A stretch of DNA of 26,694 nt. It comes from Gammaproteobacteria bacterium. GTDB lineage: Bacteria; Pseudomonadota; Gammaproteobacteria; GCA-002705445; GCA-002716945. The position numbers and the translations under genes are program-made. Position 1 is the first letter of the stretch. Each line of letters opens with the position of its first letter. Positions 1-26,694 of the stretch are shown here, piece after piece. The DNA lies in contig JAYQJW010000005.1 of NCBI GenBank assembly GCA_038142325.1, positions 1 to 26,694 of the forward strand. Reading direction: 5' to 3'. A model generated the notes under the pieces. The model was given only the letters and a program-made list of their open reading frames with translations. It was not told the origin of the DNA and did not search any database.

Positions 1-26
1 TTGCTTATCTTTGTGAGTTTCATTAT
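1..26 (+). repeat. 26-bp terminal direct repeat (circular assembly overlap) with 26669-26694
   Basis: TTGCTTATCTTTGTGAGTTTCATTAT is identical at both ends. Confidence 0.97.
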
Positions 27-1200
27 ACCATCTACCATTTACAACTACACCATTTATTTTCTCACCCCAATATACATTTAGTTCTCCTTGCTTTGTTTTA
101 ATAATGTAATCACCGAACTCTTGTAAAAATCTATCCGCCAGACATTTTACACTCAATAAATCCTCCCATTCTTCTAATGATAGAACTTCTTGATGCTCTG
201 GTATTTCAATACCTTCATCAAAGGGTTTCTTGATCCACCCTACATCAATATTATACTTATCTTTAATAAGGATATTGAGTTCCTCACAAATAGTTTCATA
301 ATCAGTTTCTTTTAATATCATAAACCCATCTTGACAAGGGACAATATCTTCTATTCTGGTTATATCTTTATTGATAAGGTAAGTGATACATTCTTCTTGA
401 ATAATCTTCTCTATGGATTGCGACCATAGACCCATAACTCCTCTTTTTGCTTCGCCCTCGTTTTTCCATTTATGCTTATCTTGTTTCAATACATCTTTTT
501 TAATCTGTGGATTAGCATTATACACAATCTCAATAATCGTTTTCATAAAATCCTCTATTTCTACAAAATCCTTAATTCTATTGTTTTCATTCATAGTAAT
601 ATCTGCCTCCTTAATCCAAGTGCTATATGATCCACCAAACATAAGGATAATTGGTAATTGCTTTGCTGTATCCTTATTACAATTATGATGGTTCATAATA
701 AACTCCCTGTATTTTTTAGGATTTTTCACATATTTAGAAAGATATGTATTATTAAGGTTATGATGCTTACAGATTTCATTAATGATAGTTGGTTGTGCGT
801 TAATCATATCCAGATCCACATAACTACCCTCACAAAAAGTATGTCTGGTTGGTCTGTGAAATATACTTGTTGAAAGATAGTTGTGTGGTTGAGTTCTACC
901 CCATTTATGCTTTGCTAATTTATGTGCTACTTGGAAACGATTTAATTTACGATTATACAATTCCTTAAACTTTATCATCTGTTCTAATTCCGTCTTGTAG
1001 GTTTTACATACACCACCTTCATATCTGGGAACTGATTGGTATGATATACCCATCTCCGCTTTTATAAAACCATAGAGTTTCGCCACATCTATAAGTTCTA
1101 CACATTTCTTCTTCTCAAAGATAGTTGTTCTTACGATAGAAGAGTTTAAAGTCCATTCAAACTTGAAAGGTTGGTTTTCTGTTTCTGGATTTTCCGCCAT
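1..1200 (-). CDS. 5' part of TVpol (family A-derived primase-polymerase)-SF3 helicase fusion; continues at 26668
   Basis: Manual translation from ATG 1200 gives 400 codons with no stop (MAENPETENQ...). Motifs: KWGR, YVDLDMINAQPTI (motif A), AKQLPIILMFGG (motif B), SQSIE, PCQDGFMI (motif C). In frame with 25475..26602 across the junction. Missing from the ORF track. Confidence 0.88.
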   Translation of the reverse strand, partial: MAENPETENQPFKFEWTLNSSIVRTTIFEKKKCVELIDVAKLYGFIKAEMGISYQSVPRYEGGVCKTYKTELEQMIKFKELYNRKLNRFQVAHKLAKHKWGRTQPHNYLSTSIFHRPTRHTFCEGSYVDLDMINAQPTIINEICKHHNLNNTYLSKYVKNPKKYREFIMNHHNCNKDTAKQLPIILMFGGSYSTWIKEADITMNENNRIKDFVEIEDFMKTIIEIVYNANPQIKKDVLKQDKHKWKNEGEAKRGVMGLWSQSIEKIIQEECITYLINKDITRIEDIVPCQDGFMILKETDYETICEELNILIKDKYNIDVGWIKKPFDEGIEIPEHQEVLSLEEWEDLLSVKCLADRFLQEFGDYIIKTKQGELNVYWGEKINGVVVNGRWYNETHKDKQ

Positions 1201-1227
1201 TATAATATAGTAGTATATAATAATATT

Positions 1228-1244
1228 TCTTTATATTGTTTTTT
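1228..1244 (-). promoter_or_regulatory. Putative early promoter motif AAAAAACAATATAAAGA
   Basis: Near-identical copies lie 24-30 nt upstream of six ATGs: 1228, 1600, 2560, 3647, 4056 (minus strand) and 4103 (plus strand). Confidence 0.7.
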
Positions 1245-1308
1245 AATATAAAACTTAAAAATGATTTATATTAAAATATCCAAATATTCCTAAATGTTTT
1301 ATATAAAG

Positions 1309-1572: not shown

Positions 1573-1638
1573 TATAATATAAATAGATATATTAATATTT
1601 CTTTATATTATTTTTTATTATATATTTATATGAATTAT

Positions 1639-2535
1639 TCAATTACTATTATCTACACCAAATAGCATCTCATCATTCTCCACCACATAATTACACCCTA
1701 ATAGGTGTCCTAATCCGTCTGCTATTATTGATTGATCCACTAATGCGTTAATATCAACCATATCATATAACATATCATCTTCATTCTCAATCATATCATT
1801 AATATCTTCATCTCTTAATATGTGTGTGCTTTCATTAATATACACATCTCCACTTTCCTCATAATCGGTTCTACAACAAGGACACTTCACATTATTACTA
1901 TTACAGATTGTTTTAAAACAACCCAAGCAAATTGGGTGTCCGCAGAATGTATTTCTCTTTACACAGATGGTTTTGGTTCTTCTCAATATCTTCTTTGTAG
2001 GGTGATTTCCAATAAGTTCCTGACGCTCTGTAATCCCAAACTTCTCCATACATACAGGGCAATCATCAGTATCATATAAAGGTATATCTTCATCGCATTC
2101 CAAATCTGGTTCAGGATATTCAACTTCTTTTGTGTGATAAAATCTACTTTCATCTTTCACAAACCCTAAAATGTATATAGGGTTATAAGAGAATAATTTA
2201 CTCTCATCAACAATTTCATAAATCAAGTATTTTTTAAGGTGATCCTTCCTCTCACATACAAAATAGTAATATCTATCAAATATGAAGAGTTCGTAATTGT
2301 ATCTGGTTTCCAAATCGTCCGCATAGGAAATAGTAATCTTATTCAAGTCAAACTCTCCTTTATCTGGAAAGATAGTATGATAGTTCGCACAAAGATTATC
2401 AACGAAGTAGTTATGGATTTCAGGTTCTCCTAATACAACAAAATCAGGGTCATCATTCTTCGCACCATAAAGGCGGTATTTAAGTGTTGAGTTGAGTTCA
2501 GTAAGTAGCGTAGCAGTTTCAACCATAGTAGTCAT
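1639..2535 (-). CDS. RING-finger (C3HC4) protein, putative E3 ubiquitin ligase
   Basis: CPVC...CGHPICLGC...CPCCR with a long first loop; acidic tail. Confidence 0.8.
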   Translation of the reverse strand: MTTMVETATLLTELNSTLKYRLYGAKNDDPDFVVLGEPEIHNYFVDNLCANYHTIFPDKGEFDLNKITISYADDLETRYNYELFIFDRYYYFVCERKDHLKKYLIYEIVDESKLFSYNPIYILGFVKDESRFYHTKEVEYPEPDLECDEDIPLYDTDDCPVCMEKFGITERQELIGNHPTKKILRRTKTICVKRNTFCGHPICLGCFKTICNSNNVKCPCCRTDYEESGDVYINESTHILRDEDINDMIENEDDMLYDMVDINALVDQSIIADGLGHLLGCNYVVENDEMLFGVDNSN

Positions 2536-4149: not shown

Positions 4150-4536
4150 ATGAGTGGTAGGACGATTTCTATGACTATGACCGAGAAGCGAATGTTAGAG
4201 CAGAAGGCGAAAAGTGGTTGGCGTTGTTTCTTCATTATGAGGGACAATTATGATGACCTATGTGGTTATGTAGCACAACTACAAAATAGAAACAGAGCAA
4301 CCAGAGAGCAACTGCGAAATGGTGATGATGTGGATATTGATTTTTTGAAACAGCAGTTTATAGAAATGTATGATAAACTGAAAGAATATACAGAATGTCC
4401 TGTATGTATGGAAACCCTTACCAAAGATAATATTGAAGTCCCCAAATGCGGTCATACAATCTGTAAAACCTGTATTGAAAGGATTAAACAAGATCCAGAA
4501 CCGAAATGTCCCAATTGTAGAAAGAAATATTATTAA
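4150..4536 (+). CDS. Coiled-coil plus C-terminal RING-finger (C3HC4) protein
   Basis: CPVCMETL...CGHTICKTC...CPNCR. Confidence 0.88.
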   Translation: MSGRTISMTMTEKRMLEQKAKSGWRCFFIMRDNYDDLCGYVAQLQNRNRATREQLRNGDDVDIDFLKQQFIEMYDKLKEYTECPVCMETLTKDNIEVPKCGHTICKTCIERIKQDPEPKCPNCRKKYY

Positions 4537-4628: not shown

Positions 4629-5354
4629 CTAATATGAATGAATATTCAATATTTCTAATAATCCTTTTCTAAACCGCTTTGTTGCGTCTTCTTCCATATC
4701 AATTACTAATGGTGAGAACTTTTCGGCAGTAGCATACTTGTATAGTTCCAATAACTCTTCTTTTGTGATCCCCAAACCAAACTCACTTAAAATTAAATTG
4801 ACTTCTCTGTTTCCAGACAATTTCAGTAAAACCATATAACTACAATTATTTCTTATGATTTTTGGTATTTTAAAAAATGATTGACTAATGAATATAACTG
4901 ATACATTCAATTTTCTTGCTCTTATATAATAATTCTCAACCATACTTAAATCCTTTGCTAAAACTAAATCGTCCCATACTACCAAGTGGTTCAATTCTTT
5001 ATCAAACTTATCCAGAGGTGGAGTATTACTTAACCCTTCTTTAATAACAATCTGGTCGCTCTTTTGTGAGATCCACCGATACAAAGGTTCATCTTTATTA
5101 CGAGTTATGATTGTAATACTCTGGAATGTGCCTTTATTAGCACTAAATATGGAGATGAGATTTACGAGAAAGTTTGTCTTTCCTGATCCAGATGGAGCAA
5201 CTATACACATACGAAAAGGTAATTTTAACTGATGTAGATGGAAGTTGGGATTATCCACCTTATCCAGTAATTCCTTTGGTATTTTTTCATATAGGTTTTT
5301 AATTGTTCCATCTGGTTCATCTTCCTTCACAACCTTTTTCTTTTTAGGAGGCAT
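4629..5354 (-). CDS. A32-like (FtsK/HerA) DNA packaging ATPase
   Basis: Walker A APSGSGKT, Walker B LVVWDD, arginine finger region RARKLNVS, and ISQSFFKIPKIIRNN. Confidence 0.95.
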   Translation of the reverse strand: MPPKKKKVVKEDEPDGTIKNLYEKIPKELLDKVDNPNFHLHQLKLPFRMCIVAPSGSGKTNFLVNLISIFSANKGTFQSITIITRNKDEPLYRWISQKSDQIVIKEGLSNTPPLDKFDKELNHLVVWDDLVLAKDLSMVENYYIRARKLNVSVIFISQSFFKIPKIIRNNCSYMVLLKLSGNREVNLILSEFGLGITKEELLELYKYATAEKFSPLVIDMEEDATKRFRKGLLEILNIHSY

Positions 5355-5421: not shown

Positions 5422-6564
5422 ATGAGTGCTTATCCACCACCAAAGGAGAATGTCCCTATTTACAATCCCAAAGATTTTGAGTTTGAAAATATACCATTAA
5501 CATTAGCAGATGCGAAGGATTATTATTTGGAATATCCAACAGCACAAGGCAAAGAAACCTTACAGGAAACAATAATAAATGGTGCTTTAACTTGTAATGA
5601 TGTTGCTACGATTAATGATAGTTTAGACATATCACAACCAACAAATACTTTAAATGCCCTAAATATAGAGCAAGATGAACCAGGATATACTATCAGGGCA
5701 ACCCAAAAAACAGGATCAGGTGGAACATTATTAGTATCTGCCTCATCATCAACAGGTAAAAGTAATGTAATAACCCAACAAGGAGATACTGAAATAGCAG
5801 GAAACACATTAACATTAGTCCCAATAACTCAACAAAACGGACAAGGTATAAGATTACGCTATATATCAAATGATATGTATGGTATTACCAGCATAAAAAA
5901 TAGTGGATCATCACAAGGTATATTAATATTTCCTGATAATTCACAACAAACTACGGCATATAAAGAACAAGTATATAATTTTCCTATGAATTGGAATAAT
6001 GGAAACTGGTATAGATTAGGAAGTCCAGTCCCTTTAAATGTAGGTTTTACATCTGCTTTTATAAATATACCATCATTAGCAGTAAGCGACCCATTATACC
6101 AATACGCAGGGTTCAGTATTACATTAGAAATAACATATAACCTGACTGGTTATGTAAATACAAGCACTAATTTAAATACTGCTAATGTTTATACAGGGTA
6201 TAATTTAGCAAGGTTTAGTATGAGTAGAGCAAATGGAGTAGTAGATATTCAAGATATACTTATGGTTGGTAATATGAGAACCCAACAAACAATAACAGCA
6301 AACGGACAATCTAATTCTAATTTTAAACCTTATTATATAGATTATGCCTCACAAACAAATAAAAATGGATTAGAAATATTCTTTTGGGACGGAACGCTTC
6401 CAGCAGGAGGTAGTCCAGCAGTTAATCCTTCTATTACGAGTTATGTGAGAAGTGTTAGAATTGTAAATACAACACCTACAACATTAACATCTAATCCTAT
6501 GACGAGAACTGAACCAAATAATAAAACAACAACGCCTTTTATTGCTTACTTTAATCCACAATAA
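5422..6564 (+). CDS. Fibre/spike-like virion protein 1
   Basis: T/N/S/G-rich; N-terminus MSAYPPPKENVPIYNP shared with the next two ORFs. Confidence 0.7.
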   Translation: MSAYPPPKENVPIYNPKDFEFENIPLTLADAKDYYLEYPTAQGKETLQETIINGALTCNDVATINDSLDISQPTNTLNALNIEQDEPGYTIRATQKTGSGGTLLVSASSSTGKSNVITQQGDTEIAGNTLTLVPITQQNGQGIRLRYISNDMYGITSIKNSGSSQGILIFPDNSQQTTAYKEQVYNFPMNWNNGNWYRLGSPVPLNVGFTSAFINIPSLAVSDPLYQYAGFSITLEITYNLTGYVNTSTNLNTANVYTGYNLARFSMSRANGVVDIQDILMVGNMRTQQTITANGQSNSNFKPYYIDYASQTNKNGLEIFFWDGTLPAGGSPAVNPSITSYVRSVRIVNTTPTTLTSNPMTRTEPNNKTTTPFIAYFNPQ

Positions 6565-6622
6565 TATAATGATTTAGTAATATTTAATTGGAAAAAAATA
6601 AAATCTTTATTAATTATATATA

Positions 6623-7990
6623 ATGAGTGCTTATCCACCGCCTAATGAGAACTTACCAATTTTTAATCCATTAGATTTTCAACGACCTAATATTCCTCTT
6701 ACTATCAACGATGCGAAGGATTATTTTTTAGAATATCCAACAGCACAAGGACAGGAAACATTAAGCAGTATAATAGTAAATGGATCATCAACTTTTAATG
6801 ATGTAGCAGATGTAAATGATACACTAACAATTAATCAACCAACATCATCTCTAAATGCCGTTCAAATAGTAAGTGATAATCCAGGTTATAGTTTAACCGC
6901 CACTTCAAGAACCAATCCAGGAACAGCAGGATTATTAACCATAACAGGTTCATCGTCAGTAGATAAAGAAAACCCAATAGTAGCGGATACGGATAGTGTT
7001 ATATCCACATCTATAAACGGACAAGATGATACAGGAAACTTATGTTTAACTGGTAAATCATCTACAAATGGAAATGGAATTAGAATATTAGCAGGAAGCG
7101 GTGTTTATAATTACGGACCATTTAAATTATTACAAGGAGCAGGTAATCAAAATGCCGAAATTGTTTTTAGTGATTTAACTACACAAACAACAGCATTTAA
7201 TAGCAGTTTATATGCCCCAATTAATTCACCAGTTTTTACAGGTGTTCCAGAAGCACCCACACCAACACAAGGAGATAATAGCACAAAATTAGCAACAACG
7301 AATTATGTAGATACAGCAGTAGGAGGTGGTGGTTCAGTTCATTATACTTATACTGAATTATTTACTAATGGATCATCAGGAACAAGTGTAAGTATAACTA
7401 TACCTGCTAATTGTATTAGATGTGATGTAATGACTTTTGGTAGGGGAGGTTCAGCAGGGCAAACGAATGCTTATGGTTCTTATGCGGTGAATGGAGGTAG
7501 TGGAGGTGGTGCTTCTATGGTATGTGCTTATGGAGTTCCTATCAATTCACTCTCTACATTAGACCTATATTGGACTGCTGGGACTACGAGTTCAGGAATA
7601 GCATATGTAATGTTAAATAGTGCTTTACCATTAGGTTCTGCTTATAATGGTGGAGATGGTGGAGCAGGACAAAGTAGCGGAACAGGAGCAAAAGGAATAG
7701 GTGCTACGGCAGTAGCAACTCAACCAAAGTTCCCCAATAGTTCTTTTGACGGAACAGACGGACAAGATGGTGGATCATCAGGATTTCCTAATAGTAATGT
7801 CCCACACGGCGGTAATCAACCTGTTAATGTAGGAAAGCAGGAAATTATTGGTGGATCACAGGGCGGACCAGGCATAGGACAGAAATATTCTGCTTTTAAT
7901 GACCCTTCTGTATCACCATCATTTTATTATAATGCTTCACCACATTTAAACGCTGGTAGTTGTCTTATAACTTGGTATATTAAACAATAG
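6623..7990 (+). CDS. Fibre/spike-like virion protein 2 with phage tail-fibre repeat and Gly-rich domain
   Basis: Paralogous N-terminus; YAPINSPVFTGVPEAPTPTQGDNSTKLATTNYV matches a tailed-phage fibre motif; Gly-rich C-terminus. Confidence 0.78.
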   Translation: MSAYPPPNENLPIFNPLDFQRPNIPLTINDAKDYFLEYPTAQGQETLSSIIVNGSSTFNDVADVNDTLTINQPTSSLNAVQIVSDNPGYSLTATSRTNPGTAGLLTITGSSSVDKENPIVADTDSVISTSINGQDDTGNLCLTGKSSTNGNGIRILAGSGVYNYGPFKLLQGAGNQNAEIVFSDLTTQTTAFNSSLYAPINSPVFTGVPEAPTPTQGDNSTKLATTNYVDTAVGGGGSVHYTYTELFTNGSSGTSVSITIPANCIRCDVMTFGRGGSAGQTNAYGSYAVNGGSGGGASMVCAYGVPINSLSTLDLYWTAGTTSSGIAYVMLNSALPLGSAYNGGDGGAGQSSGTGAKGIGATAVATQPKFPNSSFDGTDGQDGGSSGFPNSNVPHGGNQPVNVGKQEIIGGSQGGPGIGQKYSAFNDPSVSPSFYYNASPHLNAGSCLITWYIKQ

Positions 7991-8070
7991 ACCATTTAGA
8001 AGAATATTAAGGATTGATTGCTTAATTTTTATTAATATAATAAATTATTATCTTATTATATTATATATAG

Positions 8071-10365
8071 ATGGCGAATTATCAACCACCAACCGAAGAT
8101 GTGCCTATATTTAATGGTAAGTATTTCACCGCAGAAAACATAACAACAGCAAACGGAGATGGTAGATATTTAAAATTAATAGCACAAGGCGACGAAGATA
8201 TGAATAATTATGATATTCTTAATATCAACCAAGTAGATACTCAATCCGTAAAGTTTGGTGATGGGACTATACAAACAACAGCAGGAGGAGGAGGTGGAGG
8301 AGTTCAAAATCCTATGACTTCCAATTTAGATGCTGGTAATTTTTTTATACAGAATGCTGGTCTAATAGAAACATTTTATTTAGAAAATACAAAAGTAAAT
8401 AATGCTGATGCTATTAAGTATATTAATTTTGGTGCTATAACCGCTGGTGATAAATACTTAATTGGACGAAGTAATAATCGTCTTGCTATGGAAGGTAATA
8501 TTATGGTCTTAATTAGAACTTTGGACGCTGGTTTTAAACAAGAGTTTCTGGCGGAAGTTATAGCATTCCCAGATAGAAGTGTTATAAGAATTATCAATAA
8601 TGTATGTGAAAGCGATACAATACCCATTACTGAAATACTTTATGAAGATGACCCATTAGATCCACTACAATCTGTATTATGTTTTAAATGTGGTGTAAGT
8701 GCTACAAGATGCGATATTTTAGTTTATCAAAATGGTAATGATAATAACACATTAGGAAGTCAATTTTTAATACCTACTACAATAACATCTATACCAACAT
8801 CTACAAATGTATATACATCTGTATTATTGGAAGTCCAAACAGCAGGAACAAGTGGTAATTACAGAACAGCAGGAACAACCTTTTCAAGTGATACACAAAC
8901 TATTACATTAGCAACTAACGCAATAAGAGAATTAACAGCAACAGCAGACATTCAATTACTTAACAATATCAATCTTAATAATAATAGCATTAAAAATACA
9001 AATACAATATCAGTAGATAATATTGGTGTAAATCTCAATAGTGAAATACAATCCACAGCATCAATCAATCTCGGTGGAAATGACCTACAAAATACTAATA
9101 ATGTGTATGTTGATAGTTTAAGAGAGAATACACCAGGTAATAGTATTGTGGTTCATAATACCCTCAATATGAATAATAATCATATACATAATTTAAGTGA
9201 TCCAATACAAAATAAAGATGGTGCTAATAAGCAATATGTAGATACTGCCGTAGCAGGATTTTTAACCAATCCTTTAAATGCTAATTTAGATGGAGCATCA
9301 CTTTATAAAGGTATTAATTTTGTTGATCCAACTAACGCCCAAGATTTAGCAACCAAAAATTATGTGGATACAACAGGAGGAAGTGGAGTTCAAAATCCTA
9401 TGACTTCTAATTTAGATGGTGGGACTTTTAATATTACTAATGTTGGGAACTTCTCTAATGTTCCTACAACAGGTAATTTTTTCAGTAATGGACTATTTCA
9501 ACATTCTAACGGAGCATTCCAAATTGGAGGTTCAGGTATGACGACTGATACAGATGTTAATTTTAATGATAGTGCTACACCTATATTACAAATTAATAAA
9601 ACAGCAAGGCAAATTAATTTAGCGAATGGTTCAACAACATATATTAAACCAGGTGCGGTTTTATCAGCAGGACAAGGTGGAGCATTAATTACATACCAAA
9701 CATCAACACCAGCAACCGCTTATAATGGTGAAATAACAACATCATTTTACCCACCAAATCCAAATAGAAGAAATGATTTTTTGACCTTAACAGGATATAA
9801 TTATGGTAATTCAGTAATTCCTATGGCGATTTCACCGATGACTACACAACAATATTATACTGCTAATGTAGCGGATTATGTGCCTTTTACTGCTGGATTG
9901 GGGTGGAATGCTGGTAATAATGGTGATATAATCCCTCTGGTTCAACGAAATACATTAGTTCAATTGGACGGATTACCACCAGGAATTAATAATCACGATG
10001 CGAATGCGTTTCCGTTTGACGCTCATTTTATAGGAATTGGTTTAAATTGTGCCTCTCAATTAGGAGGTTGGGTATTGACTGGTGTAGCACAAGTAGAATT
10101 AGTTTATAGCATTATTGGTGCGAGTTATGTTTCATTTGTTCCCCCTGTAATAGTAGCACAATCAGGAGCAGGTGGTAATTTAACAATAGAAAATATAAGA
10201 TTACCACAAAGTAGTTGGGTGGAAGCATCTTCTTCCTCTTTTGGTGGTATTCAATTAGGATTACAATTAAACATATCAGGAGCAGATATTATTGATACAC
10301 AAGATCCAAGTAATAAATCTATAAATGCCTGTGGATATTTATTATGTAATATTCCTATCAATTAA
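8071..10365 (+). CDS. Fibre/spike-like virion protein 3
   Basis: Repeats GVQNPMTSNLD (x2), DPIQNKDGANKQYVD and DPTNAQDLATKNYVD; Asn-rich beta repeats. Confidence 0.75.
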   Translation: MANYQPPTEDVPIFNGKYFTAENITTANGDGRYLKLIAQGDEDMNNYDILNINQVDTQSVKFGDGTIQTTAGGGGGGVQNPMTSNLDAGNFFIQNAGLIETFYLENTKVNNADAIKYINFGAITAGDKYLIGRSNNRLAMEGNIMVLIRTLDAGFKQEFLAEVIAFPDRSVIRIINNVCESDTIPITEILYEDDPLDPLQSVLCFKCGVSATRCDILVYQNGNDNNTLGSQFLIPTTITSIPTSTNVYTSVLLEVQTAGTSGNYRTAGTTFSSDTQTITLATNAIRELTATADIQLLNNINLNNNSIKNTNTISVDNIGVNLNSEIQSTASINLGGNDLQNTNNVYVDSLRENTPGNSIVVHNTLNMNNNHIHNLSDPIQNKDGANKQYVDTAVAGFLTNPLNANLDGASLYKGINFVDPTNAQDLATKNYVDTTGGSGVQNPMTSNLDGGTFNITNVGNFSNVPTTGNFFSNGLFQHSNGAFQIGGSGMTTDTDVNFNDSATPILQINKTARQINLANGSTTYIKPGAVLSAGQGGALITYQTSTPATAYNGEITTSFYPPNPNRRNDFLTLTGYNYGNSVIPMAISPMTTQQYYTANVADYVPFTAGLGWNAGNNGDIIPLVQRNTLVQLDGLPPGINNHDANAFPFDAHFIGIGLNCASQLGGWVLTGVAQVELVYSIIGASYVSFVPPVIVAQSGAGGNLTIENIRLPQSSWVEASSSSFGGIQLGLQLNISGADIIDTQDPSNKSINACGYLLCNIPIN
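8299..8332 (+). repeat. 34-bp intragenic direct repeat (second copy 9385-9418)
   Basis: GGAGTTCAAAATCCTATGACTTC(C/T)AATTTAGATG, one mismatch. Confidence 0.9.
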
Positions 10366-14135: not shown

Positions 14136-14180
14136 ATGGGGCGAGTATGCCCTCATCGTCCGTTAATATAATTGAGGGCA
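14126..14180 (+). promoter_or_regulatory. Predicted -1 programmed ribosomal frameshift signal (slippery heptamer plus H-type pseudoknot)
   Basis: A AAA AAC at 14126-14132, in frame just before TAA; 6-nt spacer. Stem 1 GGGCGA(14139-44)/TCGTCC(14156-61); stem 2 TGCCCTCA(14148-55)/TGAGGGCA(14173-80). The -1 frame is open into ORF 14147. Confidence 0.78.
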
Positions 14181-17174: not shown

Positions 17175-17308
17175 CAAAGTAGCAAACTTGTGCGGTAATT
17201 ACAAAGATTTTATAAATAATTTTTTAATAATTAATTATGATTATTAAAAAATGAAAAATGTTTTTAAGAAAATATCTAAAACACCGCCCCACTTTGCTAC
17301 TTTTCTAC
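17171..17308. repeat. Palindromic element copy B, inverted relative to copy A
   Basis: Arms 17171-17196 and 17283-17308 match at 22/26. 17171-17217 matches the reverse complement of 2711-2757 at 43/47. Confidence 0.9.
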
Positions 17309-17920
17309 CATTTTCATACCTACTGGTATTTTGGTAAGGTCTAATCTATTACCTTCTTCTTTCTCTACGATGGGTTCTAAATCAATATCTATGGCGTTCC
17401 TTTTCTTTGGATCACTACTACGGAAGAAGTGCTTTAATATGTATTCATTCTTCTTAAAATCAACACTTTCATTTAAATCATCAAACATATCCAAGAATGT
17501 AGATACATCTTGGTATAAATCCTTACTTCTATATTTACTACTATTTATGAAGTGTAATAAAGCACAACAAAACCAACCACAGGCATTATTCATAAGGGAT
17601 TGAATATCCTTTGTGGTTTCTGGAATATTCTTACCAATTGTTCTCTCAACTGCTTTCTTAACATCACTCGGTTTTCCAACCCCATAAGGATCAAAGTAAA
17701 TACCTTCTGTTTTACCATTTGGATACTTATTAATCTGTAAGCAGACCCAGTGTGTTCCACCATTCTTTTTACCATCTTCGTCATACTCGTCTTCTAAATT
17801 AATTATGTATGCTTTGTTAAACTCTAACTTGTTAGGCAGTTCATCTTTAAAGCAAATATCCGCTAATGGTATTTCCATTCTTTTACAAAGTTCCCTTAAT
17901 GCGACATCTGTTAAACTCAT
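17297..17920 (-). CDS. Adenain-like (clan CE) cysteine maturation protease
   Basis: YIINL, GTHWV (His), YFDPYG (Asp), IQSLMNNACGWFC (Gln, Cys). Confidence 0.93.
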   Translation of the reverse strand: MSLTDVALRELCKRMEIPLADICFKDELPNKLEFNKAYIINLEDEYDEDGKKNGGTHWVCLQINKYPNGKTEGIYFDPYGVGKPSDVKKAVERTIGKNIPETTKDIQSLMNNACGWFCCALLHFINSSKYRSKDLYQDVSTFLDMFDDLNESVDFKKNEYILKHFFRSSDPKKRNAIDIDLEPIVEKEEGNRLDLTKIPVGMKMVEK

Positions 17921-19263: not shown

Positions 19264-21045
19264 TTAAGTTCTTACACCTGTAAGAGCATCAATATCAACA
19301 CTTACTCCGTATTCAATAAAGACGAAAAGGTCTAATTCCTTTTGTGATGTGTTTTGTCCTACAAGTTGAACCGATTTTGGGACACTTTCTTCAACAGGAA
19401 GCATTCTTGATAAATCAACATAGTAGAAAGAGTATTCCATATCAAAACCCAATCTATCAATAAGTCCGCTTGTTAGTCCGTCAGTCATACCACCATTAAC
19501 AGCATTAACGCCGTAAAATTGGTTGTTGAACTCTTCAAAGGCGTATCTTTGTGTGTTATAGATGGCGTTTTGTCCTGATACAACAACATTAAAGTTGGTA
19601 AGACCAGTAAGAGGTGAAACAGCACCACAACCAGCAGGGTCAAATGGCGACTGATATACAGGCATACCAGTAGGAAGACCAGCATTTACTACACCAGAAG
19701 AGAAGAATGGAAGAACAAGAATGGACTTAATATTAGCAATACCATTTGTAATAAGGTTATTAACTTGTCCTGATCCACCACCGACTTTAAGCACTTGGTA
19801 TTGGTAGATGTCTGTGTATTTTATGCTCTTAATTGGTGAAGATAGGTATGATTGCTCAAAGACAGGATTGAAGGTATATGAAGGAACATATAGGTAAATG
19901 GATTTACCAACACTACCATCATTAACAACACCACTAATAGCAGGGTCAAGACATTTAGCACCAACAGACAAGTTGGCGGTATAATTACAAGCACCAAGAG
20001 CAAGAGAAGAACCATTAAGAGTTTTACCAGAAGCAATCATAATAGGAACAACACCACCAACGGCATTAGAAGATCCAGTAAGGGTGATTGTCTTTTCAAT
20101 AGGAGGACCAACAATATCGGTTGTTGTGAAACTGGTAGAGCAGTTATTTAAGTTAAGGGTCATCTTCATATAAGCACCTTTAAGCAAAGGACACATAGCG
20201 AAGAATGAATGAAGGTGTTTAAGATAAATTGTTGCTTGGATAGAAATAGCGAAAACACCTTGATTACCAGCATTAGCACCATCGGTCTTTTGGGAAATGT
20301 ATGATTTCCAGATTTGGGAAGTGGTGGAAGCAGAAAGCAATTGAGAAAACTTGGCGTTGGCGGCGTTGGTAGTTCCACCAATAGAAGTTCCAGCAGTAGC
20401 GTCAGGGTCGTAGTTGATGTATCGTTGTCTTTTCAATAGACCTTCATTACCTTCGGTTTGTCTGTATCTGTTGAATATGGTAAGATTGGAATTGGAAATA
20501 AGGTTGGTGTTATTACATACACCACTTCCATTTTTGTCGGCAACCAAAGCACCAGCATTAGAACCTACAAAAGTCCAAGAAAGTGGATCATCAGGATAGA
20601 AACCGATTGTTGCTCCTTGTGTATCTACATCGTCCCAACTTAAAGAAGTCATAAGTTTAAAGGAGTTCCACATATTACACCAAGGCGTTTGTTGAATAAT
20701 GGTTGTTCCATTATAATCCAAAGTTAAGGAATGGACGATTTGACCGAACCAATTTTTAAGACCAATAGCATAGTCCGCACTTGTAGCGTCTGTATTAGGT
20801 GTAAATCCACCAGCAGTAGCAAGGTCAGTAGTAGCAAGAGAAAGCAACATAGGAACGCTTAAATATGCTTCTCGGTAGGACATCCATTTATTACTATTGG
20901 AAAGTTGGGAAGTATCTATAACCGACTGATTGGAGTTGTAATTGGCGTTTTGGTTATCCAAAATGTTTAACCAATCCTTCTTGACGAAAACGGAGGGTGA
21001 TCCCTCTACCTCTTGGGATAAGTCAAAAACGAGTTTATCACACAT
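19264..21045 (-). CDS. Major capsid protein (double jelly-roll, Polinton-related type)
   Basis: 593 aa, beta-rich; DNQNANYNSNQSVIDTSQLSNSNKWMSYREAYLSVP and YYVDLSR...FVFIEY; lies in the structural cluster with the penton. Confidence 0.88.
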   Translation of the reverse strand: MCDKLVFDLSQEVEGSPSVFVKKDWLNILDNQNANYNSNQSVIDTSQLSNSNKWMSYREAYLSVPMLLSLATTDLATAGGFTPNTDATSADYAIGLKNWFGQIVHSLTLDYNGTTIIQQTPWCNMWNSFKLMTSLSWDDVDTQGATIGFYPDDPLSWTFVGSNAGALVADKNGSGVCNNTNLISNSNLTIFNRYRQTEGNEGLLKRQRYINYDPDATAGTSIGGTTNAANAKFSQLLSASTTSQIWKSYISQKTDGANAGNQGVFAISIQATIYLKHLHSFFAMCPLLKGAYMKMTLNLNNCSTSFTTTDIVGPPIEKTITLTGSSNAVGGVVPIMIASGKTLNGSSLALGACNYTANLSVGAKCLDPAISGVVNDGSVGKSIYLYVPSYTFNPVFEQSYLSSPIKSIKYTDIYQYQVLKVGGGSGQVNNLITNGIANIKSILVLPFFSSGVVNAGLPTGMPVYQSPFDPAGCGAVSPLTGLTNFNVVVSGQNAIYNTQRYAFEEFNNQFYGVNAVNGGMTDGLTSGLIDRLGFDMEYSFYYVDLSRMLPVEESVPKSVQLVGQNTSQKELDLFVFIEYGVSVDIDALTGVRT

Positions 21046-21714: not shown

Positions 21715-22602
21715 TTATTCACCTTTATCCTTAATCACTAAAAGAAAAGTAATTGCTGGATCATTAATCTGGATTGGTTGAAGGTTTGTTCCTAATATAG
21801 TAAGACGAAGTTGGTTATATGTTCCAGGCAGAAGTTTATTCCAAGCAAATTGAGGTGGTTTTTCATTAATTAATGCCCCAATAGCAACAGAAGGAACAAT
21901 AGAATAAATTACTGATGTTGGATTAGCATACTTATTATCAATACCAGAAAGAGATACTAAAATACTACTATTAGGTTGAATATCTGGTGCTGTTGTAGAA
22001 ATATAGGATAATGTGCCGTTTGCTAATTTACTTACATAATCATCATTAGCAGGAGGAACATAAGCGTTATTTGTATTGGCGTTTGTAGTAAAGTTAGGAA
22101 CAAAACCTAAAATAGTATTGATATTTGTGGGTAGAATAAATTGTGGGTTAAATGTTTGTGTTGGATAACCAACCCAGGAAGCAGGTTCAGTAAAACCAGC
22201 AGGTAAAGAAGTTGGGACTAAAAAGGTATTCAACTGAACGGCATACCTACTTGGATTGACTATCATTTCTAAATAATATACATTTTCACCAGCACTATTA
22301 ACTAAATAATGTCCGTTCTGTATTAGAGCAAATTGTAGATATTCGTTTAATCTTGCTACTTCATAAAGACCATCTGGAATATCTATTGTGTATGTGGTTG
22401 TGGTTGCTCCCACTGTCCAAGTATATTGGATAATATTGTTGTTATATCTTTCGCTAATATTAAACCAACTATAATACATAGAAACTTGTGATAGAGCAAC
22501 ATAACTATCCTTAAACTCAACAGAACCAGGAAAATTGTAAATCATTTTATTATTCTGTCCATCTGGAACAAGATTACTACGATTTAAGACAATTGTTCGC
22601 AT
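21715..22602 (-). CDS. Minor capsid (penton) protein, single jelly-roll
   Basis: VALSQVSMYYSWFNIS..YNNN, IDIPDGLYEV..LN, ILGF, and a terminal LRLTIL...INDP strand pattern typical of Polinton/PLV pentons. Confidence 0.88.
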   Translation of the reverse strand: MRTIVLNRSNLVPDGQNNKMIYNFPGSVEFKDSYVALSQVSMYYSWFNISERYNNNIIQYTWTVGATTTTYTIDIPDGLYEVARLNEYLQFALIQNGHYLVNSAGENVYYLEMIVNPSRYAVQLNTFLVPTSLPAGFTEPASWVGYPTQTFNPQFILPTNINTILGFVPNFTTNANTNNAYVPPANDDYVSKLANGTLSYISTTAPDIQPNSSILVSLSGIDNKYANPTSVIYSIVPSVAIGALINEKPPQFAWNKLLPGTYNQLRLTILGTNLQPIQINDPAITFLLVIKDKGE

Positions 22603-23016: not shown

Positions 23017-24700
23017 TTAAAAACCCATTTCTGTTAATTCTAAAAGTAATTCTTTTACTTGTGATTTTGGTATAACACCTTTATTACTCAATTTCATTAT
23101 TGTTGATTTAAACTTTCTTACTAAATCTTTATTATCATTACCAGACATAATTTGCCCCTTCATAATCTCAAACTCATCAATTTCCTTATCAATATCACTC
23201 TTTTTTGGTGCTGGTAAAATCAATCTGTCTTTAAGGTTGCTCTTCTCTGCTAATTTATTGAGATAGACCTTTTCACCATCATCTAAATCTTGTAAATCCT
23301 CAAAATCAGGCATTTCATTATTGGTAATTCCTCTTATGATGTGTCCCAATTTTCTTGAAACTCTCTCACTTGGAAAATCCTTAATTGATGATCCAGCAGG
23401 TCTTTTTACTGCTATTACATTATTTTCTAAACGATGCTTATTAATTATATACTTACCAAAAGGAACATATTTAGGTGTAGGTGCTACACCACCAAACCAA
23501 TCAATAGTAGGTTTTTTCTGGACTTTCTTTTGGACTTTTCTAACCAATCCCTTACCTTCTATTTTTCCTAATGCCTTTTCATCTGCTATATCACTAAACT
23601 CTTCTCTCCAATTTTGGTTCAACCAACCAATTAAATTATTTTTACTTCCTTGTTCTAATTGCTTACTTACCCTTAATCCATTATCTCTGGCGAACTTAAT
23701 TAGATCCGCTTTTGTGAATAATTTAAAATTACCAGGTAAAGGAACATCACCAGGATACTTTAATTGACTTCCACTTCGTCCAGGAACAAGTAATTCACCA
23801 CTTTCATCAGTAGGTAGTTGGACTAACACTTGTTCTAATTGTCCCACCAAGTTTTCGGTTTCTGGTTGAAGTTGAAATAAACTAATACCTTTTACCAGAT
23901 GGTCGTTCATTCCTCCCTTATCCTTTGCTCTCGCATACATAAAAGCACCATCTAACCATCTTTTCATAACTATTGATGTAGGTAATTCACCACCAATATC
24001 ATTTGCTAATTTCAATCCAGTATTTACAGCGTCGGCATCAATAAATCTACCTTGTGAAGTTAAATCCGCTACTGCTCCTCTAATAAGTGGATATAGTCCC
24101 ATTAATCTCATTACTGATTGTTGGAAACGACCACTAACACCTCGTTCTACACCTAACCCATTATAAGCGTCATAAGCACTCTTCATAAATGATTGTAATT
24201 CACTTACAGAAGGGAACGCTTTTACCATATCCCTACTATTGAGTTCTACATTTCGTCCTGATGTTTGTTGTAATCCTGTTTCAATTCCATTCACATTCGC
24301 CTGTGTATTCATATAATTCACCAAAAAGGGTTCAAAAATCTCCGCATAAATACCTAATCTATATTTTTGGTTTAAGTTCCTTGTTAATAGCATCGGCACT
24401 CTGGGCGTAGAATAGCATTTGTTTTGGTGTTAATTCTTGGACGATTTTGTTTGCTTCTTTTCCGTCCGTAATCTCGCTTAACTTTGACCTAACTTCTACT
24501 TTCAATCTCTCAATATCCGCTAATTTCTCTTCGGTTGTTCTAAAATCACTTGGTTCTACTGGTAGTTGTCCTGTTCGTTTATAGACCTTATTTGCCTGTA
24601 AATTAACATCATCTAACCTTGCTCGTAGATCCAAGTTTGCTAAATACTGCTGTCTAAACTTATCAGCGTCGCTGGGGTTTCTGTTCGGTTGTCCGCTCAT
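23017..24700 (-). CDS. Conserved Polinton/PLV-type protein; one gene split by a 1-nt frame break near 24365
   Basis: Overlapping ORFs 24359..24700 and 23017..24399 join as ..AINKELKPKYRLGIYAEIF..; IEGKG site; C-terminal KGQIMSGNDN motif. Confidence 0.72.
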
Positions 24701-24794
24701 ATCTATACTATTAGGAAAGAAAATAATAATATATTAATTTATGAAAATCGGTTTATAAATTAATAATTTGGTCTAAACTATTTTGTTTGTGAAA

Positions 24795-25229
24795 TTAGTT
24801 TTTAAATATTTCCTCATTCGTTTCTCTTATTTGTTTATTCAATTCCTCGCTTGTGAAGGTATTTCCTGCTACATCGTATATAACCATATCATCAGGCATT
24901 AGTGGTTGCCCTATTCTATTGCCTTCTACTCTGTATTTGGTATAGTCATCAGTTTCATTCAATACTTTTTCCAATACTATATCATTAAACTCTTCTTGGA
25001 TCTCTTGTTCGCTTTTTGTATGAAACCATTTCGTCATAACATCTAATACCTTCTTCTTGTCCCTTTTATTCATTTGTGAAGGGTTGGTTAGTGGGTGATG
25101 CCCTAAACTTTCTAATGCTATTATCTTACATTTCATCGCCTTTTCCTTCATATCCAGTAATTCCAATTCTTCTTGGGAAACCAATTTGGTAGTTTCCTCC
25201 CTTTTCAATTCTGGTTTTGCTAAACTCAT
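24795..25229 (-). CDS. Hypothetical protein
   Basis: 144 aa ORF with late-type upstream motif and a downstream hairpin (TATTAATTTAT..ATAAATTAATA). Confidence 0.75.
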   Translation of the reverse strand: MSLAKPELKREETTKLVSQEELELLDMKEKAMKCKIIALESLGHHPLTNPSQMNKRDKKKVLDVMTKWFHTKSEQEIQEEFNDIVLEKVLNETDDYTKYRVEGNRIGQPLMPDDMVIYDVAGNTFTSEELNKQIRETNEEIFKN

Positions 25230-25281
25230 TATATATATTATAATTAGAAAAAAATAATTATAATATTAATATTCTCTATTT

Positions 25282-26694
25282 TTAATCACTATCACTATCA
25301 TCACCAGTATCTAACATACAACCTGTTTGTTGTTGTTCTTTAACTGATACACCTACCATCATTTTACCAGTTTTACTATTGCCTTCTATTCTAAATTGTT
25401 CTTCACACCATTTATAAAACTCATCTCTACCATACTGCCTTCTTTCTCTGTAAGGCATTCTCTTATATTCATCATCATAAGTTAATAGTATCCCACATAT
25501 CCTTTAATCTTATTGTCTTTGCTTTCTTATCTTGCTTACTATCGTTTTCTTCTACTGGGTTCTTAATATAATGATTGTTGAATAGTTTTAAGAATAGATT
25601 TTGGTTTTCAATAAACTTCTCGGTTCTATCTCTAATAGATTTTGGAATAGTAAAAATAATACCTTTATCGCCATCTGGATCTTTAAAATGTCTATATACA
25701 CCCAACAACATATCTAAAAAGCAATCTCTTACCCTCTGGATAAACTCTTGGGTTTCATAATAGGTATTACCTTCTTTGTATTGTATTCCATCAAAGGTTT
25801 TACCGATTTTCTCTGGATCATCTGTAAAATTAACAGGGAAGAATAAATCTACCAATCTTCTATAATCCGCCCTTTGTGGTTTTCCATCTAAATCTGGTGA
25901 ATTATTGAACTCCATAACAAAAGTAGCACTCATATAGAAACTTTCTGGATTACAATTCAACAATCTACCACAGAACTTACCACCACCAGTAAGGTTTCTT
26001 AACATAGCAACTCTAATAGCACCTGCTACTTCCTTGAAGTTGATATATCTTTTATTCTTTAAATTAAACATATCTGGTGAAGGTGTATTCGCCCTCTCTA
26101 CATCTTTCAATATACCATTACCAGGTTGAAAGTAATACTCACCTAATACTGCGTCCATTAATGAACCAGTAAGACCCTTACCATTACCACCTTGTCCGTT
26201 GAATAAAAATAACTTCTGGTATGCTCTACCATCTAACCCACTCGCCAATACTTTCAAAAATAATTCTCTGTGTTCTGGATCTGGGTGTATATCTTCAAAT
26301 ATCTTCGCCAACATTTCTTTTGTTTCTTGATTATGTTTATCTGTATAATCTACTTCTTTGTAATCGTATTTTGTTGATAAGGTAATATAGTCATCAAAAG
26401 TGTAATCTCTAAACTCGTCTTTTCTTAAATCATACACACCATTATTGAAACCTAATAAGAATGGATCACTATTAAAATCAGTTTCTATTTCCTTTGCTTT
26501 GGTGAGAATATGCTTAATTATATCATTCATTTTGTTAGATACACTACAATTGGTTCTTAATGTTTTTAACAACTTGTTTATATCCTTCTCATCTAACTCC
26601 ACAGCACCAACAATTTCATTATGAATAATATTAAATAAATCCTCACTTATATATCTGTATAATTTATATTGCTTATCTTTGTGAGTTTCATTAT
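25282..26694 (-). CDS. 3' part of TVpol-SF3 (D5-like) helicase; as sequenced stops at 25475, +1 frame continues to 25282
   Basis: LLGFNNGVYDL (D5-N), Walker A GQGGNGKG, Walker B YINFKE, NLTGG, MEFNN, ADYRRLV..FPVNF. Confidence 0.9.

Follow-up and report, generated by a model that had tools for sequence, protein, structure and literature searches.

The 26,694-nt stretch of DNA analysed here (the window) represents the entire genome of a marine virophage, a circular dsDNA molecule in which about 40 words of restriction type are missing altogether or very nearly so. Virophages are small viruses that parasitise giant viruses. We consider it probable that this genome was purged by numerous and diverse sequence-specific endonucleases, with the pooled restriction-modification (R-M) arsenals of its giant-virus helpers as the leading source. 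That about forty words have lost every copy points to enzymes that cut DNA as a major weapon against virophages.

The virophage identity is supported by the major capsid protein (MCP), the penton, the A32 ATPase, the clan CE protease, a RING domain and the circular genome of 26.7 kb. The unique length is about 26,668 bp and the GC content 32.5%. The primase-helicase frame reads across the circular junction, and the residues ...NETHKDKQ are common to both end ORFs. The features are, in plain terms:

1 to 26, plus strand: 26-bp exact direct repeat, identical to the final 26 bases (26669-26694); assembly overlap of a circular contig
1 to 1200, minus strand: D5-like primase-helicase, C-terminal part of the ORF that is also listed at 25475 to 26692 (open-ended ORF, residues common at the junction, terminal repeat)
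1639 to 2535, minus strand: second protein with a weak RING/U-box-like match (PF14570, E 3e-4, under cut-off)
4150 to 4536, plus strand: RING-finger protein with a eukaryote-type E3 ligase domain (several RING Pfam families over cut-off, best E 9e-9)
4629 to 5354, minus strand: FtsK/HerA-type packaging ATPase, Pox_A32 (PF04665, E 1e-12, 48.5 bits versus a cut-off of 22.8)
5422 to 10365, plus strand: three fibre-like ORFs in a row (380, 455 and 764 aa) that have an N-terminal motif in common and bodies rich in Gly/Ser/Thr/Asn; no Pfam family matched
11061 to 11708, plus strand: DUF5872 + DUF5754 protein (E 7e-30 and 6e-19)
14147 to 15484, plus strand: TET-associated glycosyltransferase (TAGT) domain protein (PF20691, E 6e-33)
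15660 to 16193, minus strand: conserved 177-aa ORF (23 of 81 sequences have a homologue), matching neither Pfam nor PADLOC families
17297 to 17920, minus strand: cysteine protease of clan CE, adenain/Ulp-like (sub-threshold Pfam matches: ElaD/SseL-like E 6e-5, Peptidase_C5 E 7e-4)
19264 to 21045, minus strand: MCP, double jelly-roll, virophage type (AF2 model, pLDDT 66)
21715 to 22602, minus strand: penton (minor capsid) protein (AF2 model, pLDDT 86)
25475 to 26692, minus strand: D5-like primase-helicase, N-terminal part (PF08706 D5_N, E 1e-12); the ORF runs over the junction into 1-1200

The MCP model is of middling confidence (pLDDT 66, TM 0.33-0.38). Its top PDB matches are the MCPs of mavirus (6g45, E 2e-8) and Sputnik (3j26, E 3e-8), and its top BFVD matches are capsid proteins of the Sissi and Qinghai Lake virophages. 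For the penton model, mavirus penton 6g41 (E 2e-7) is followed by adenovirus penton bases and Sputnik penton 3j26_N. Mavirus and Sputnik thus provide the nearest structures and have a four-gene morphogenesis module in common with the window, although identity to its capsid proteins is only about 9-11% in structural alignments. At the sequence level, searching PDB gave no match, profile included. In the protease family, 21 of 24 members have the ElaD/SseL-like match, H57, D77, Q107 and C114 are invariant, and the gene adjoins that of the MCP in 78 of 81 sequences.

The MCP has 2381 homologues, and the longest contig among the matches listed is 27.7 kb; the DUF5872 + DUF5754 family has 223, which among the matches listed lie exclusively on virophage-sized contigs (up to 26 kb). 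Homologues of the TAGT-domain protein, possibly a DNA-hypermodification enzyme judging by its domain, are confined to the window's clade (the window and relatives L002, L005 and L029; 4 of 81 sequences). No recognisable DNA methylase is encoded in the genome. Near-identical DNA is present in estuary, seawater and marine metagenomes, and the contig is mis-binned into a marine bacterial assembly.

The sequence-only reading had reported RGCY, TGCA, CATG, GTAC, TCGA, ACGT, CTAG, CCGG and GANTC as missing. Full counts bear this out and reveal a much broader purge: AGCT, AGCC, GGCT and GGCC (hence RGCY) and each of the other words have zero copies, as do GCGC, CGCG, CGGG and CGTG. In total 15 of 256 4-mers are absent, including 11 of the 16 palindromic ones. 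A dinucleotide model expects between 4 and 90 copies per absent word (CATG 90, CTAG 77, TGCA 76, GANTC 76, AGCT 69, GTAC 64), with Poisson probabilities down to 1e-40; Markov(k-2) expectations are similar. The CpG observed/expected ratio is 0.51, largely because the NCGN words ACGT, TCGA, CCGG and GCGC are missing.

Interrupted words are purged selectively. With a single N, CTNAG, GTNAC, TCNGA and AGNCT are at zero, and ACNGT (1), TGNCA (2) and CANTG (3) nearly so. With two, GTNNAC, CTNNAG, GGNNCC and GCNNGC are at zero, whereas ACNNGT (79), CANNTG (86), GANNTC (52), TCNNGA (61) and AGNNCT (68) stand near expectation. Longer gaps are also affected, with observed versus expected counts of 2 versus 89 for CAN5TG, 1 versus 76 for GAN6TC, 10 versus 89 for CAN6TG, 0 versus 41 for GGAN7TG and 0 versus 23 for CAAN7TTC. 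Among 1360 words of the form 2-N(1-10)-2, near-total purges are exclusively palindromic, with gaps of 1, 2, 5 and 6. Furthermore, AAATTT is missing (44 expected), as is the non-palindromic GTCTC/GAGAC, and GGATG/CATCC occurs once versus about 45 expected. A/T-only palindromes occur at expectation, as do five gapped GC-containing palindromes.

Selection against these words acts on the DNA itself and is ongoing. In 300 synonymous-codon shuffles, which preserve every protein and per-gene codon usage, the purged words all reappear in 300 of 300 (TGCA 75, range 59-91; CTAG 46; CATG 28). Shuffled counts of control words agree with the observed ones (ACNNGT, 71 versus 65; CCWGG, 21 versus 22). The earlier reading had listed CCWGG and GGWCC as present; CCWGG does match the shuffles, but GGWCC is strongly depleted (4 copies versus 21-30 expected). 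Its alanine-codon rule is exact: after A, GCA (152) and GCG (15) are used and GCT/GCC never, and after T, GCT (105), GCC (18) and GCG (16) are used and GCA never. The dipeptide M[HQ], which forces ATGCA, is missing (9.8 expected), and [HQ]xM, which forces CAN5TG, occurs once versus 9.7 expected; control dipeptides are normal. Between the window and L002, 1934 substitutions are accompanied by 1 purged-set site versus 351 (range 292-395) when substitutions equal in number and spectrum are placed at random; the comparison with L003 gives 0 versus 219. Within its assembly, the purge is confined to the virophage contig: co-binned contigs of equal GC (937, 80 and 42 kb; C2, C7 and C8) have observed/expected ratios of 0.60 to 1.62, mostly 0.8-1.2, for the purged words. 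The suggestion that restriction-type words were removed by selection on DNA is therefore upheld by expectations, shuffles, dipeptides and substitutions alike, and dinucleotide bias offers no explanation.

Two oddities mark the window's clade. GATC has 57 copies, surviving only in the context GGATCW/WGATCC, and WGATCW is at zero versus about 22 in shuffles; CCWGG reads CCAGG on one strand at 20 of 21 sites, regardless of gene direction. Phage T7 escapes the Type III enzyme EcoP15I by carrying its recognition sites in one orientation, as the CCWGG sites of the window are. However, no Type III enzyme is known to recognise CCWGG, which is a quasi-palindrome, and the comparison is an analogy only.

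Purges vary between lineages. Across 48 related loci the purged subsets differ, from 0 to 32 words; across 49 sequences, 0 to 35 of 47-48 testable words are purged, with at least 10 in 23 of the 49. In a quick tree, L010, with 32 purged words, groups as sister to L026-L028, with 3 each, and L009 (29) as sister to L018 (12) and L019 (10). Words also switch singly, as seen from observed versus expected counts for TGCA in L010 (92 versus 53), CTNNAG in L004 (50 versus 48) and ACGT in L009 (35 versus 38). Of 39 virophage lineages, 5 have CAN6TG purged and another 8 have it strongly depleted. Such changes between close kin are as expected for a record of the enzymes which each lineage met. They agree with the earlier proposal that the missing words may fingerprint the helper, though not to the point of naming it. 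One prediction, that carriers of the D12 (Dam-like) methylase keep GATC more often, failed: GATC is purged in 9 of 26 small contigs with D12 versus 31 of 67 without it (Fisher p = 0.36), a weak test since D12 enzymes need not be GATC-specific.

From these patterns we infer nucleases, encoded by giant viruses, as the agent. Strong, continuing selection against endonuclease cleavage would shape the virophage sequence, with enzymes probably including Type II-like ones for palindromic or interrupted sites, Type IIS-like ones for asymmetric sites and Type I/IIB-like ones for bipartite sites. Target words would be removed mainly through synonymous codon choice and, when every synonymous codon would retain the word, at the cost of the amino-acid pair. 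Avoidance is presumably the virophage's main protection, given that it encodes no recognisable DNA methylase. The source would be the combined R-M arsenal of co-infecting giant-virus strains, which may use these enzymes against virophages or for degrading foreign and host DNA. About 40 specificities exceed those of any single virus in the cited papers (at least 8 predicted R-M systems in CpV-BQ2, PMC6459981), so that a pooled repertoire over many helper strains must be assumed. The link of the purge to giant viruses is circumstantial. The earlier claim that this DNA replicates beside a giant virus holds if the element, a virophage by its gene content and folds, behaves like known virophages.

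Small competitors, namely other virophages or polinton-like viruses that are free or reside in a protist genome, might instead supply the nucleases, a reading which we regard as unlikely but the most serious rival. Methylase-nuclease pairs in some virophage relatives make small viruses another possible source: the D12 methylase of L060 and L064 has a GIY-YIG nuclease ORF directly after it, L026 carries an N6_N4 methylase beside an HNH_3/NUMOD4 endonuclease, and L028 has a GIY-YIG nuclease close to methylase-like ORFs. The annotation of CpV-PLV Curly includes an HNH endonuclease as well as a DNA methyltransferase (PMC6459981), and a 2026 preprint remarks that nucleases and methyltransferases occur commonly in viruses of this kind and suggests that they form R-M systems (10.64898/2026.10.13.758929). 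However, these GIY-YIG and HNH ORFs may be homing endonucleases rather than restriction enzymes, and no such pair was found in the window's own lineage. Moreover, a genome of 20-30 kb fits one or two systems, so about 40 words would require a still larger pool of competitors.

It is improbable that the words are avoided as methylase targets, the harm being methylation by the helper (silencing or methylation-dependent nucleases) and not cleavage of unmethylated sites. The purged words are of a type recognised by methylases, and many orphan DNA methyltransferases without endonuclease partners are described in giant viruses (PMC6459981, PMC7253447). Yet some virophage relatives have DNA methylases of their own, which would be odd if methylation were harmful, and an all-or-none loss with dipeptides sacrificed is more in keeping with a lethal double-strand cut than with a graded effect.

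Still less credible is a bacterial or archaeal double-jelly-roll virus or plasmid under ordinary prokaryotic R-M, despite the binning with a marine bacterial genome and weaker fold matches of the capsid model to tectivirus capsid proteins. The top folds of both capsid proteins are those of virophage (mavirus, Sputnik, Sissi, Qinghai Lake) and adenovirus proteins, the clan CE protease adjoins the MCP in nearly all relatives, the RING finger exceeds Pfam cut-offs and the co-binned bacterial contigs avoid none of the words. The nearest Atlas clusters are Preplasmiviricota, one with Sputnik MCP families, which serves as a lead only. Finally, an origin without selection on words, through composition, mutation bias, general avoidance of hairpin palindromes or assembly artefact, can practically be dismissed: low CpG and the mostly palindromic nature of the words would suit it, but the Markov, dinucleotide and codon-shuffle nulls all fail, A/T-only and five gapped GC-containing palindromes are spared, non-palindromic words are purged as well, relatives differ word by word and independent assemblies have the purge in common.

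The endonuclease purge which we favour has its closest parallel in bacteriophage and plasmid genomes, where avoidance of restriction sites (short palindromes) was reportedly described by Sharp in 1986, Karlin in 1992, Rocha in 2001 and Rusinov in 2018. There too, recognition words are under-represented beyond composition, through codon choice and with variation between related viruses, most strongly in genomes which, like the window, lack their own methylases. In contrast, the window belongs to a satellite of eukaryotic giant viruses, and our literature search found no paper reporting site avoidance in virophages. For a genome of 26.7 kb the purge is extremely broad, comprising about 40 words and leaving exactly no copy of 11 of the 16 palindromic 4-mers.

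Chloroviruses, to which the earlier reading had matched the missing words, are giant algal viruses with 4-base restriction enzymes, among them CviJI (RGCY), CviRI (TGCA), CviQI (GTAC) and CviBI (GANTC). They are freshwater viruses, and we know of no virophage of a chlorovirus. PBCV-1 has the R-M systems CviAI (GATC) and CviAII (CATG), as described in PMC7248222. CATG, RGCY, TGCA, GTAC and GANTC are indeed at zero in the window, but the match is too narrow: GATC is kept, more than 30 further words are purged, so that most of the roughly 40 lie outside that list, and the DNA is marine/estuarine.

R-M as an anti-virophage measure has been proposed in the literature without demonstration. For Acanthamoeba mimiviruses and the zamilon virophage, the account in PMC7253447 is of no DNA methylation and no support for R-M. 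In the marine chlorarachniophyte giant viruses ChlorV, CAN6TG and TGCA are methylated strain-specifically and one methylase adjoins an endonuclease; the authors speculate that R-M could suppress virophages (PMC13196603). Both words are depleted in the window, but RCGY, the third ChlorV motif, is retained in part (ACGC 19, GCGT 34), and any tie of these viruses to this virophage would be hypothetical. Chrysochromulina parva virus BQ2 (CpV-BQ2), an algal mimivirid from a freshwater system, unlike the window, is reported with 13-14 DNA methyltransferases alongside its predicted R-M systems; its virophage-like satellites (PLVs) have genes for a methyltransferase, an HNH endonuclease and an E3 ligase (PMC6459981), and so do some relatives of the window.

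Fifteen of the 256 possible 4-mers are at zero copies in the window, including 11 of the 16 palindromic ones; the only palindromic 4-mers remaining are AATT, ATAT, TATA, TTAA and GATC. Inspection of the sequence alone had listed RGCY, TGCA, CATG, GTAC, TCGA, ACGT, CTAG, CCGG and GANTC as absent, with alanine codons limited to GCA or GCG after A and to GCT, GCC or GCG after T. All these words are indeed at zero, the codon rule has no exceptions, and GCGC, CGCG, CGGG and CGTG are missing as well. For each absent word, a dinucleotide model predicts 4 to 90 copies.

The purge extends to interrupted palindromes. With one free position, GANTC, CTNAG, GTNAC, TCNGA and AGNCT are at zero, and ACNGT (1 copy), TGNCA (2), CANTG (3), GCNGC (1) and GGNCC (4) are nearly gone. 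CCSGG is at 0 versus 21 for CCWGG, a word correctly reported as present. With two free positions, GTNNAC, CTNNAG, GGNNCC and GCNNGC are all at 0, TGNNCA and CCNNGG are at 4 each, and ACNNGT, CANNTG, GANNTC, TCNNGA and AGNNCT stand at expectation. The purge among longer-gap words is highly specific, with 2 copies of CAN5TG versus 89 expected, 10 versus 89 for CAN6TG and 1 versus 76 for GAN6TC. Longer words are affected too: AAATTT and AAATTC/GAATTT are at 0 versus 41–45 expected, and GAATTC, AGATCT and GATATC are at 0 with ~9 expected each. Furthermore, GGAN7TG (0 of 41 expected), CAAN7TTC (0 of 23) and AGCNTG (0 of 24) are absent, and non-palindromic words are purged, namely GGATG/CATCC (1 versus ~45), GTCTC/GAGAC (0 versus 15–23), CACG/CGTG (3 versus 38) and CCCG/CGGG (1 versus 20–36). 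By our count, about 40 separate words are purged.

The sequence-only reading matched the missing words to the enzyme repertoire of chloroviruses. That match holds for CATG, RGCY, TGCA, GTAC and GANTC, all at zero, and fails for GATC, which is kept at 57 copies, all of them GGATCW. Nor is the purge confined to this repertoire: it takes in over 30 other words, for example CTAG, ACGT, CTNAG, GTNNAC, CAN5TG, GAN6TC, GGAN7TG and GGATG.

The purge stands when observed counts are compared with Markov and codon models, and dinucleotide bias does not explain it. Expectations from maximal-order Markov models are close to those of the dinucleotide model. For the codon null, synonymous codons were shuffled 300 times within each of the 25 ORFs, preserving the proteins and the per-gene codon usage. 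All purged words return in 300 of 300 shuffles, with counts of 75 for TGCA (range 59–91), 69 for CTNNAG and 92 for CAN5TG (range 71–120), and shuffle counts of control words match those observed. In the co-binned contigs, which have equal GC, the observed/expected ratios of the purged words lie between 0.60 and 1.62, mostly 0.8–1.2. The purge exceeds chance or composition; the Markov, shuffle and co-binned-contig controls exclude composition, generic palindrome avoidance and artefact. Generic avoidance of palindromes or hairpins is also ruled out by normal counts of gapped palindrome controls, by the purge of non-palindromes and by differences between relatives.

Selection reaches the protein level, where the proteome all but excludes Met-His, Met-Gln and [His/Gln]-x-Met. 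The first two entail ATGCA and are absent versus 9.8 expected; 0 of 1000 protein shuffles gave so low a count. [His/Gln]-x-Met entails CAN5TG and is seen a single time versus 9.7 expected. In the proteome of the 25 ORFs, Trp-Pro (0 versus 3.1) and Trp-His/Gln (0 versus 3.5) are also missing, and each would force a purged word. Control amino-acid pairs are at normal counts.

By its genes, the sequence carrying this purge is the complete genome of a virophage. The first 26 bp of the window are repeated exactly at its end, and the window is therefore a circular contig of ~26,668 bp. Its circular form, size and low GC (32.5%) fit the virophage criterion of dsDNA of roughly 17–30 kb; the coding share is ~88%. 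Three of its genes are located as follows:

14147–15484, plus strand: protein with a TET-associated glycosyltransferase (TAGT) domain (PF20691, E 6e-33)
19264–21045, minus strand: major capsid protein (MCP), alignment-based AlphaFold (AF2) model with pLDDT 66
21715–22602: penton (minor capsid) protein, AF2 model with pLDDT 86

Among solved structures, the MCP model best matches the capsid proteins of mavirus (E 2e-8) and Sputnik (E 3e-8); in BFVD, a collection of predicted viral structures, those of the Sissi and Qinghai Lake virophages come first. Since the structural TM scores are low (0.33–0.38), a double jelly-roll of the virophage type is assigned with moderate confidence. By sequence, the MCP found no match in the PDB, either as a single sequence or as a profile. 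Its 2381 homologues have no informative names (six NCBI-sourced clusters carry just ‘hypothetical protein’) and, among those listed, lie on contigs of 27.7 kb at most. For the penton model, the top match is the mavirus penton 6g41 (E 2e-7); adenovirus penton bases come next, along with the Sputnik penton 3j26_N. In addition, the window encodes a packaging ATPase of the FtsK/HerA A32 type (PF04665, 48.5 bits versus a cut-off of 22.8) and, according to Pfam, a RING-finger protein and a D5-like primase-helicase whose ORF runs through the circular junction. For a putative cysteine protease, every Pfam and PDB match is under the curated thresholds; 21 of 24 members of its family match the clan CE family ElaD/SseL-like, and H57, D77, Q107 and C114 are invariant, presumably the catalytic pattern of clan CE (adenain-like). 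Of 81 sequences, 78 have the protease gene next to the MCP gene and 59 have the penton gene there, many loci being truncated. The DUF5872/DUF5754 gene gives no clue to the helper, as its homologues, among those listed, are solely on contigs of up to 26 kb.

Three consecutive fibre-like ORFs on the plus strand (5422–6564, 6623–7990 and 8071–10365) start with the N-terminal motif MSAYPPP.EN.PI.NP.DF, or one near it, but differ further on. In appearance they are paralogous receptor-binding or fibre proteins.

The contig is one of nine in an assembly of 1.10 Mb that is catalogued as prokaryotic; this marine bacterial MAG has a GC similar to that of the window and is 98% complete, with 5.3% contamination. 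Near-identical DNA occurs in 14 runs from five studies (estuary, seawater and marine metagenomes), and the sequencing runs with window DNA are metagenomes only, with no culture among them. Six RNA runs contain small shares (0.10–0.17) of window DNA, which are not counted as evidence of expression or habitat. Given its virophage-type genes and its metagenome-only occurrence, the contig is a binning passenger in the MAG and no part of the bacterium.

The MCP has 101 confirmed relatives in IMG/VR, for which 80 loci were fetched; 48 words were scored in 49 sequences, the window and the 48 loci of at least 9 kb. The number of purged words ranges from 0 (locus L067) to 35 of 47 testable words in the window, the maximum; at least 10 are purged in 23 of the 49 sequences and at least two in 48. 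Retaining one sequence per near-identical group removed 10 and left 39. The purge of CATG and that of AGCT each cover 20 of the 39 sequences in this non-redundant set; for GGCC, GATC and CTAG the number is 19 each, and for CAN6TG it is five, with strong depletion in eight more. No sequence of the set has purged AATT, TTAA or any of the five gapped control words.

Words switch on and off independently across these relatives. GATC is also missing from L004 (0 versus 42 expected), yet CTNNAG is at 50 versus 48. L010 holds 92 copies of TGCA versus 53 expected, and L009 retains ACGT (35 versus 38) and GTNAC (30 versus 38). L036–L038 have no CATG (71–93 expected) and no RGCY (140–185 expected), with TGCA and CANTG above expectation. 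On a quick maximum-likelihood tree of the MCP (48 rows, the partial L033 being dropped), L010 with 32 purged words is sister to L026–L028 with three each, and L009 with 29 is sister to L018 (12) and L019 (10). The avoided set thus differs between related genomes. Total purges of CATG, AGCT, CTAG or GATC, in differing combinations, are also seen in L083–L108, small viral contigs (4–31 kb, one of 59 kb) found via a Dam-like methylase, and the phenomenon therefore extends past the sampled capsid family.

Selection against the purged words is continuing. Between the window and its relative L002, 1934 substitutions are counted across 13.5 kb; one purged-set site is present, versus 351 (range 292–395) when as many substitutions with an identical spectrum are placed at random. 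The corresponding values, present versus expected at random, are 0 versus 219 for L003, 1 versus 256 for L005, 2 versus 58 for L001 and 4 versus 87 for L029.

The capsid-gene match at L026:10001-12115 is 2115 bases long and meets 11 stops when translated in the frame given; the gene may be interrupted (by an insertion, intron or intein) or frameshifted. L033:4592-6631 and L034:12216-14255 encode a virophage protein of 680 aa in which a SET domain is fused with a pyridoxal-phosphate-dependent enzyme domain.

Two words are retained under strict rules. GATC occurs exclusively as GGATCW/WGATCC, with WGATCW and all other contexts at zero. Within ORFs, 54 GGATCW are observed versus 34 (range 23–48) in codon shuffles; the shuffles yield 22.5 WGATCW and 14.3 GATC in other contexts versus 0 observed for both. 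The rule is shared by the clade of the window (L002 35/35, L003 18/18, L005 28/28, L029 16/16) and not by other relatives. The TAGT gene was detected in no sequences other than the window, L002, L005 and L029, the L003 locus not covering that region; no TET/JBP or cytosine methylase was detected alongside the TAGT domain in the window genome. This clade-restricted protein might carry out a context-specific DNA hypermodification that would shield GATC only inside GGATCW. The association amounts to one phylogenetic event and is for this reason a lead only.

The second rule concerns the orientation of CCWGG (sites for example at 5680, 21232 and 23732): on the plus strand, 20 of the 21 sites are CCAGG. 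Overall the CCAGG:CCTGG ratio is 20:1, to which the block of plus-strand genes contributes 9:1 and that of minus-strand genes 11:0. Pro-Gly is encoded as CCA-GG in 8 of 9 cases in plus-strand genes and as CCT-GG in 10 of 10 in minus-strand genes; since this codon choice flips with the gene strand, the rule tracks the DNA strand, not transcription. Among 1199 asymmetric 4- to 6-mers, CCWGG alone shows a bias of the same sign in both blocks. The clade relatives share the orientation bias (0:13, 0:10, 0:5 and 1:6), and in many other lineages CCWGG is purged altogether. Placement in one orientation would evade an enzyme requiring two opposed sites.

The word set is specific, all-or-none, kept at a cost to proteins and variable between close relatives, the hallmark of sequence-specific endonucleases that make even a single site fatal. 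Neither PADLOC nor relaxed Pfam scans recognised a DNA methylase or nuclease in the window ORFs; a self-inflicted purge is therefore rejected, and avoidance is the main protection of this genome.

The endonucleases probably come from restriction-modification (R-M) systems of giant viruses. Such systems are known from algal giant viruses; those of PBCV-1 target GATC and CATG (PMC7248222). CpV-BQ2, a mimivirid with virophage-like satellites, is described with 13–14 DNA methyltransferases and at least eight predicted R-M systems (PMC6459981), and the marine ChlorV with strain-specific methylation of CAN6TG, TGCA and RCGY (PMC13196603). The motif CAN6TG is unusual, and its depletion both in the window and across further marine virophage lineages provides the most specific link found; RCGY, taken as one degenerate motif, escapes the purge in the window. 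In Acanthamoeba, mimiviruses and zamilon are unmethylated, and the one experimental study at hand found no support there for R-M against virophages (PMC7253447). The purged words in the window outnumber any published single-virus repertoire reviewed, which suggests exposure to a pooled, strain-variable arsenal.

Competing small viruses are a credible alternative source of the enzymes, on account of methylase-nuclease pairs in the relatives. A methylase of the Dam-like D12 family is directly followed by a GIY-YIG nuclease ORF at L060:1233-2415 and L064:4298-5399, an N6_N4 methylase lies next to an HNH endonuclease ORF at L026:6149-8398, and methylase-like ORFs lie near a GIY-YIG nuclease at L028:417-3245. 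These pairs may form entire R-M-like modules, or the nucleases may be homing enzymes. When D12 methylase relatives were sought, a one-sequence scan matched only the query itself, and an alignment scan gave mostly contigs of 4–31 kb, none clearly giant-virus-sized. That a Dam-like methylase of its own lets a genome keep GATC was suggested by the MCP set, where three of three D12 carriers keep the word, and was not supported in 26 further carriers: in this wider set GATC is purged in 9 of 26 carriers versus 31 of 67 non-carriers (p = 0.36), and D12 methylases may have targets other than GATC. A prokaryotic host for the element, as the filing of the contig would have it, is unlikely: its capsid folds, its protease and its RING domain speak against one, as does the co-binned bacterium, in which word counts are normal.

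With giant viruses as the source, virophage purge sets might be a readable record of marine giant-virus R-M arsenals, together with two clade escape routes (GGATCW modification and CCWGG orientation), a proposal that we advance tentatively and with more doubt than conviction. If it is true, each lineage's purged set lists the specificities it has met, and restriction is a principal front in the arms race of virophages with giant viruses. The recorded specificities would include CAN5TG, GAN6TC, GGAN7TG, CAAN7TTC, AGNCT and TGNCA, for which we know of no described enzyme counterpart. The purge profiles predict motifs that co-occurring giant viruses should methylate and cut, making the question testable; they could also pair uncultured virophages with their helpers and reveal new enzyme specificities.

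R-M as a giant-virus weapon against virophages is suggested in the discussions and reviews at hand, where it is put forward without evidence (PMC7253447, PMC13196603). In the full-text literature searched, with subscription journals mostly outside it, no paper was found to describe virophages or polinton-like viruses that avoid recognition sites. The loss of CATG, AGCT, GGCC, GATC or CTAG from half of the lineages would be the first genomic footprint of R-M in conflict with virophages, with erased sets that turn over between close relatives and some 40 words at or near zero in one genome. The window also shows how far evasion of defence at the DNA level can constrain proteins.

Phage T7 evades the Type III enzyme EcoP15I through sites in one orientation. 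The likeness is one of pattern, as the window holds an asymmetric site in nearly a single orientation. Restriction avoidance is known from phages, and what we describe is this classical phenomenon in an unreported biological setting, the virophage, and at an extreme breadth.
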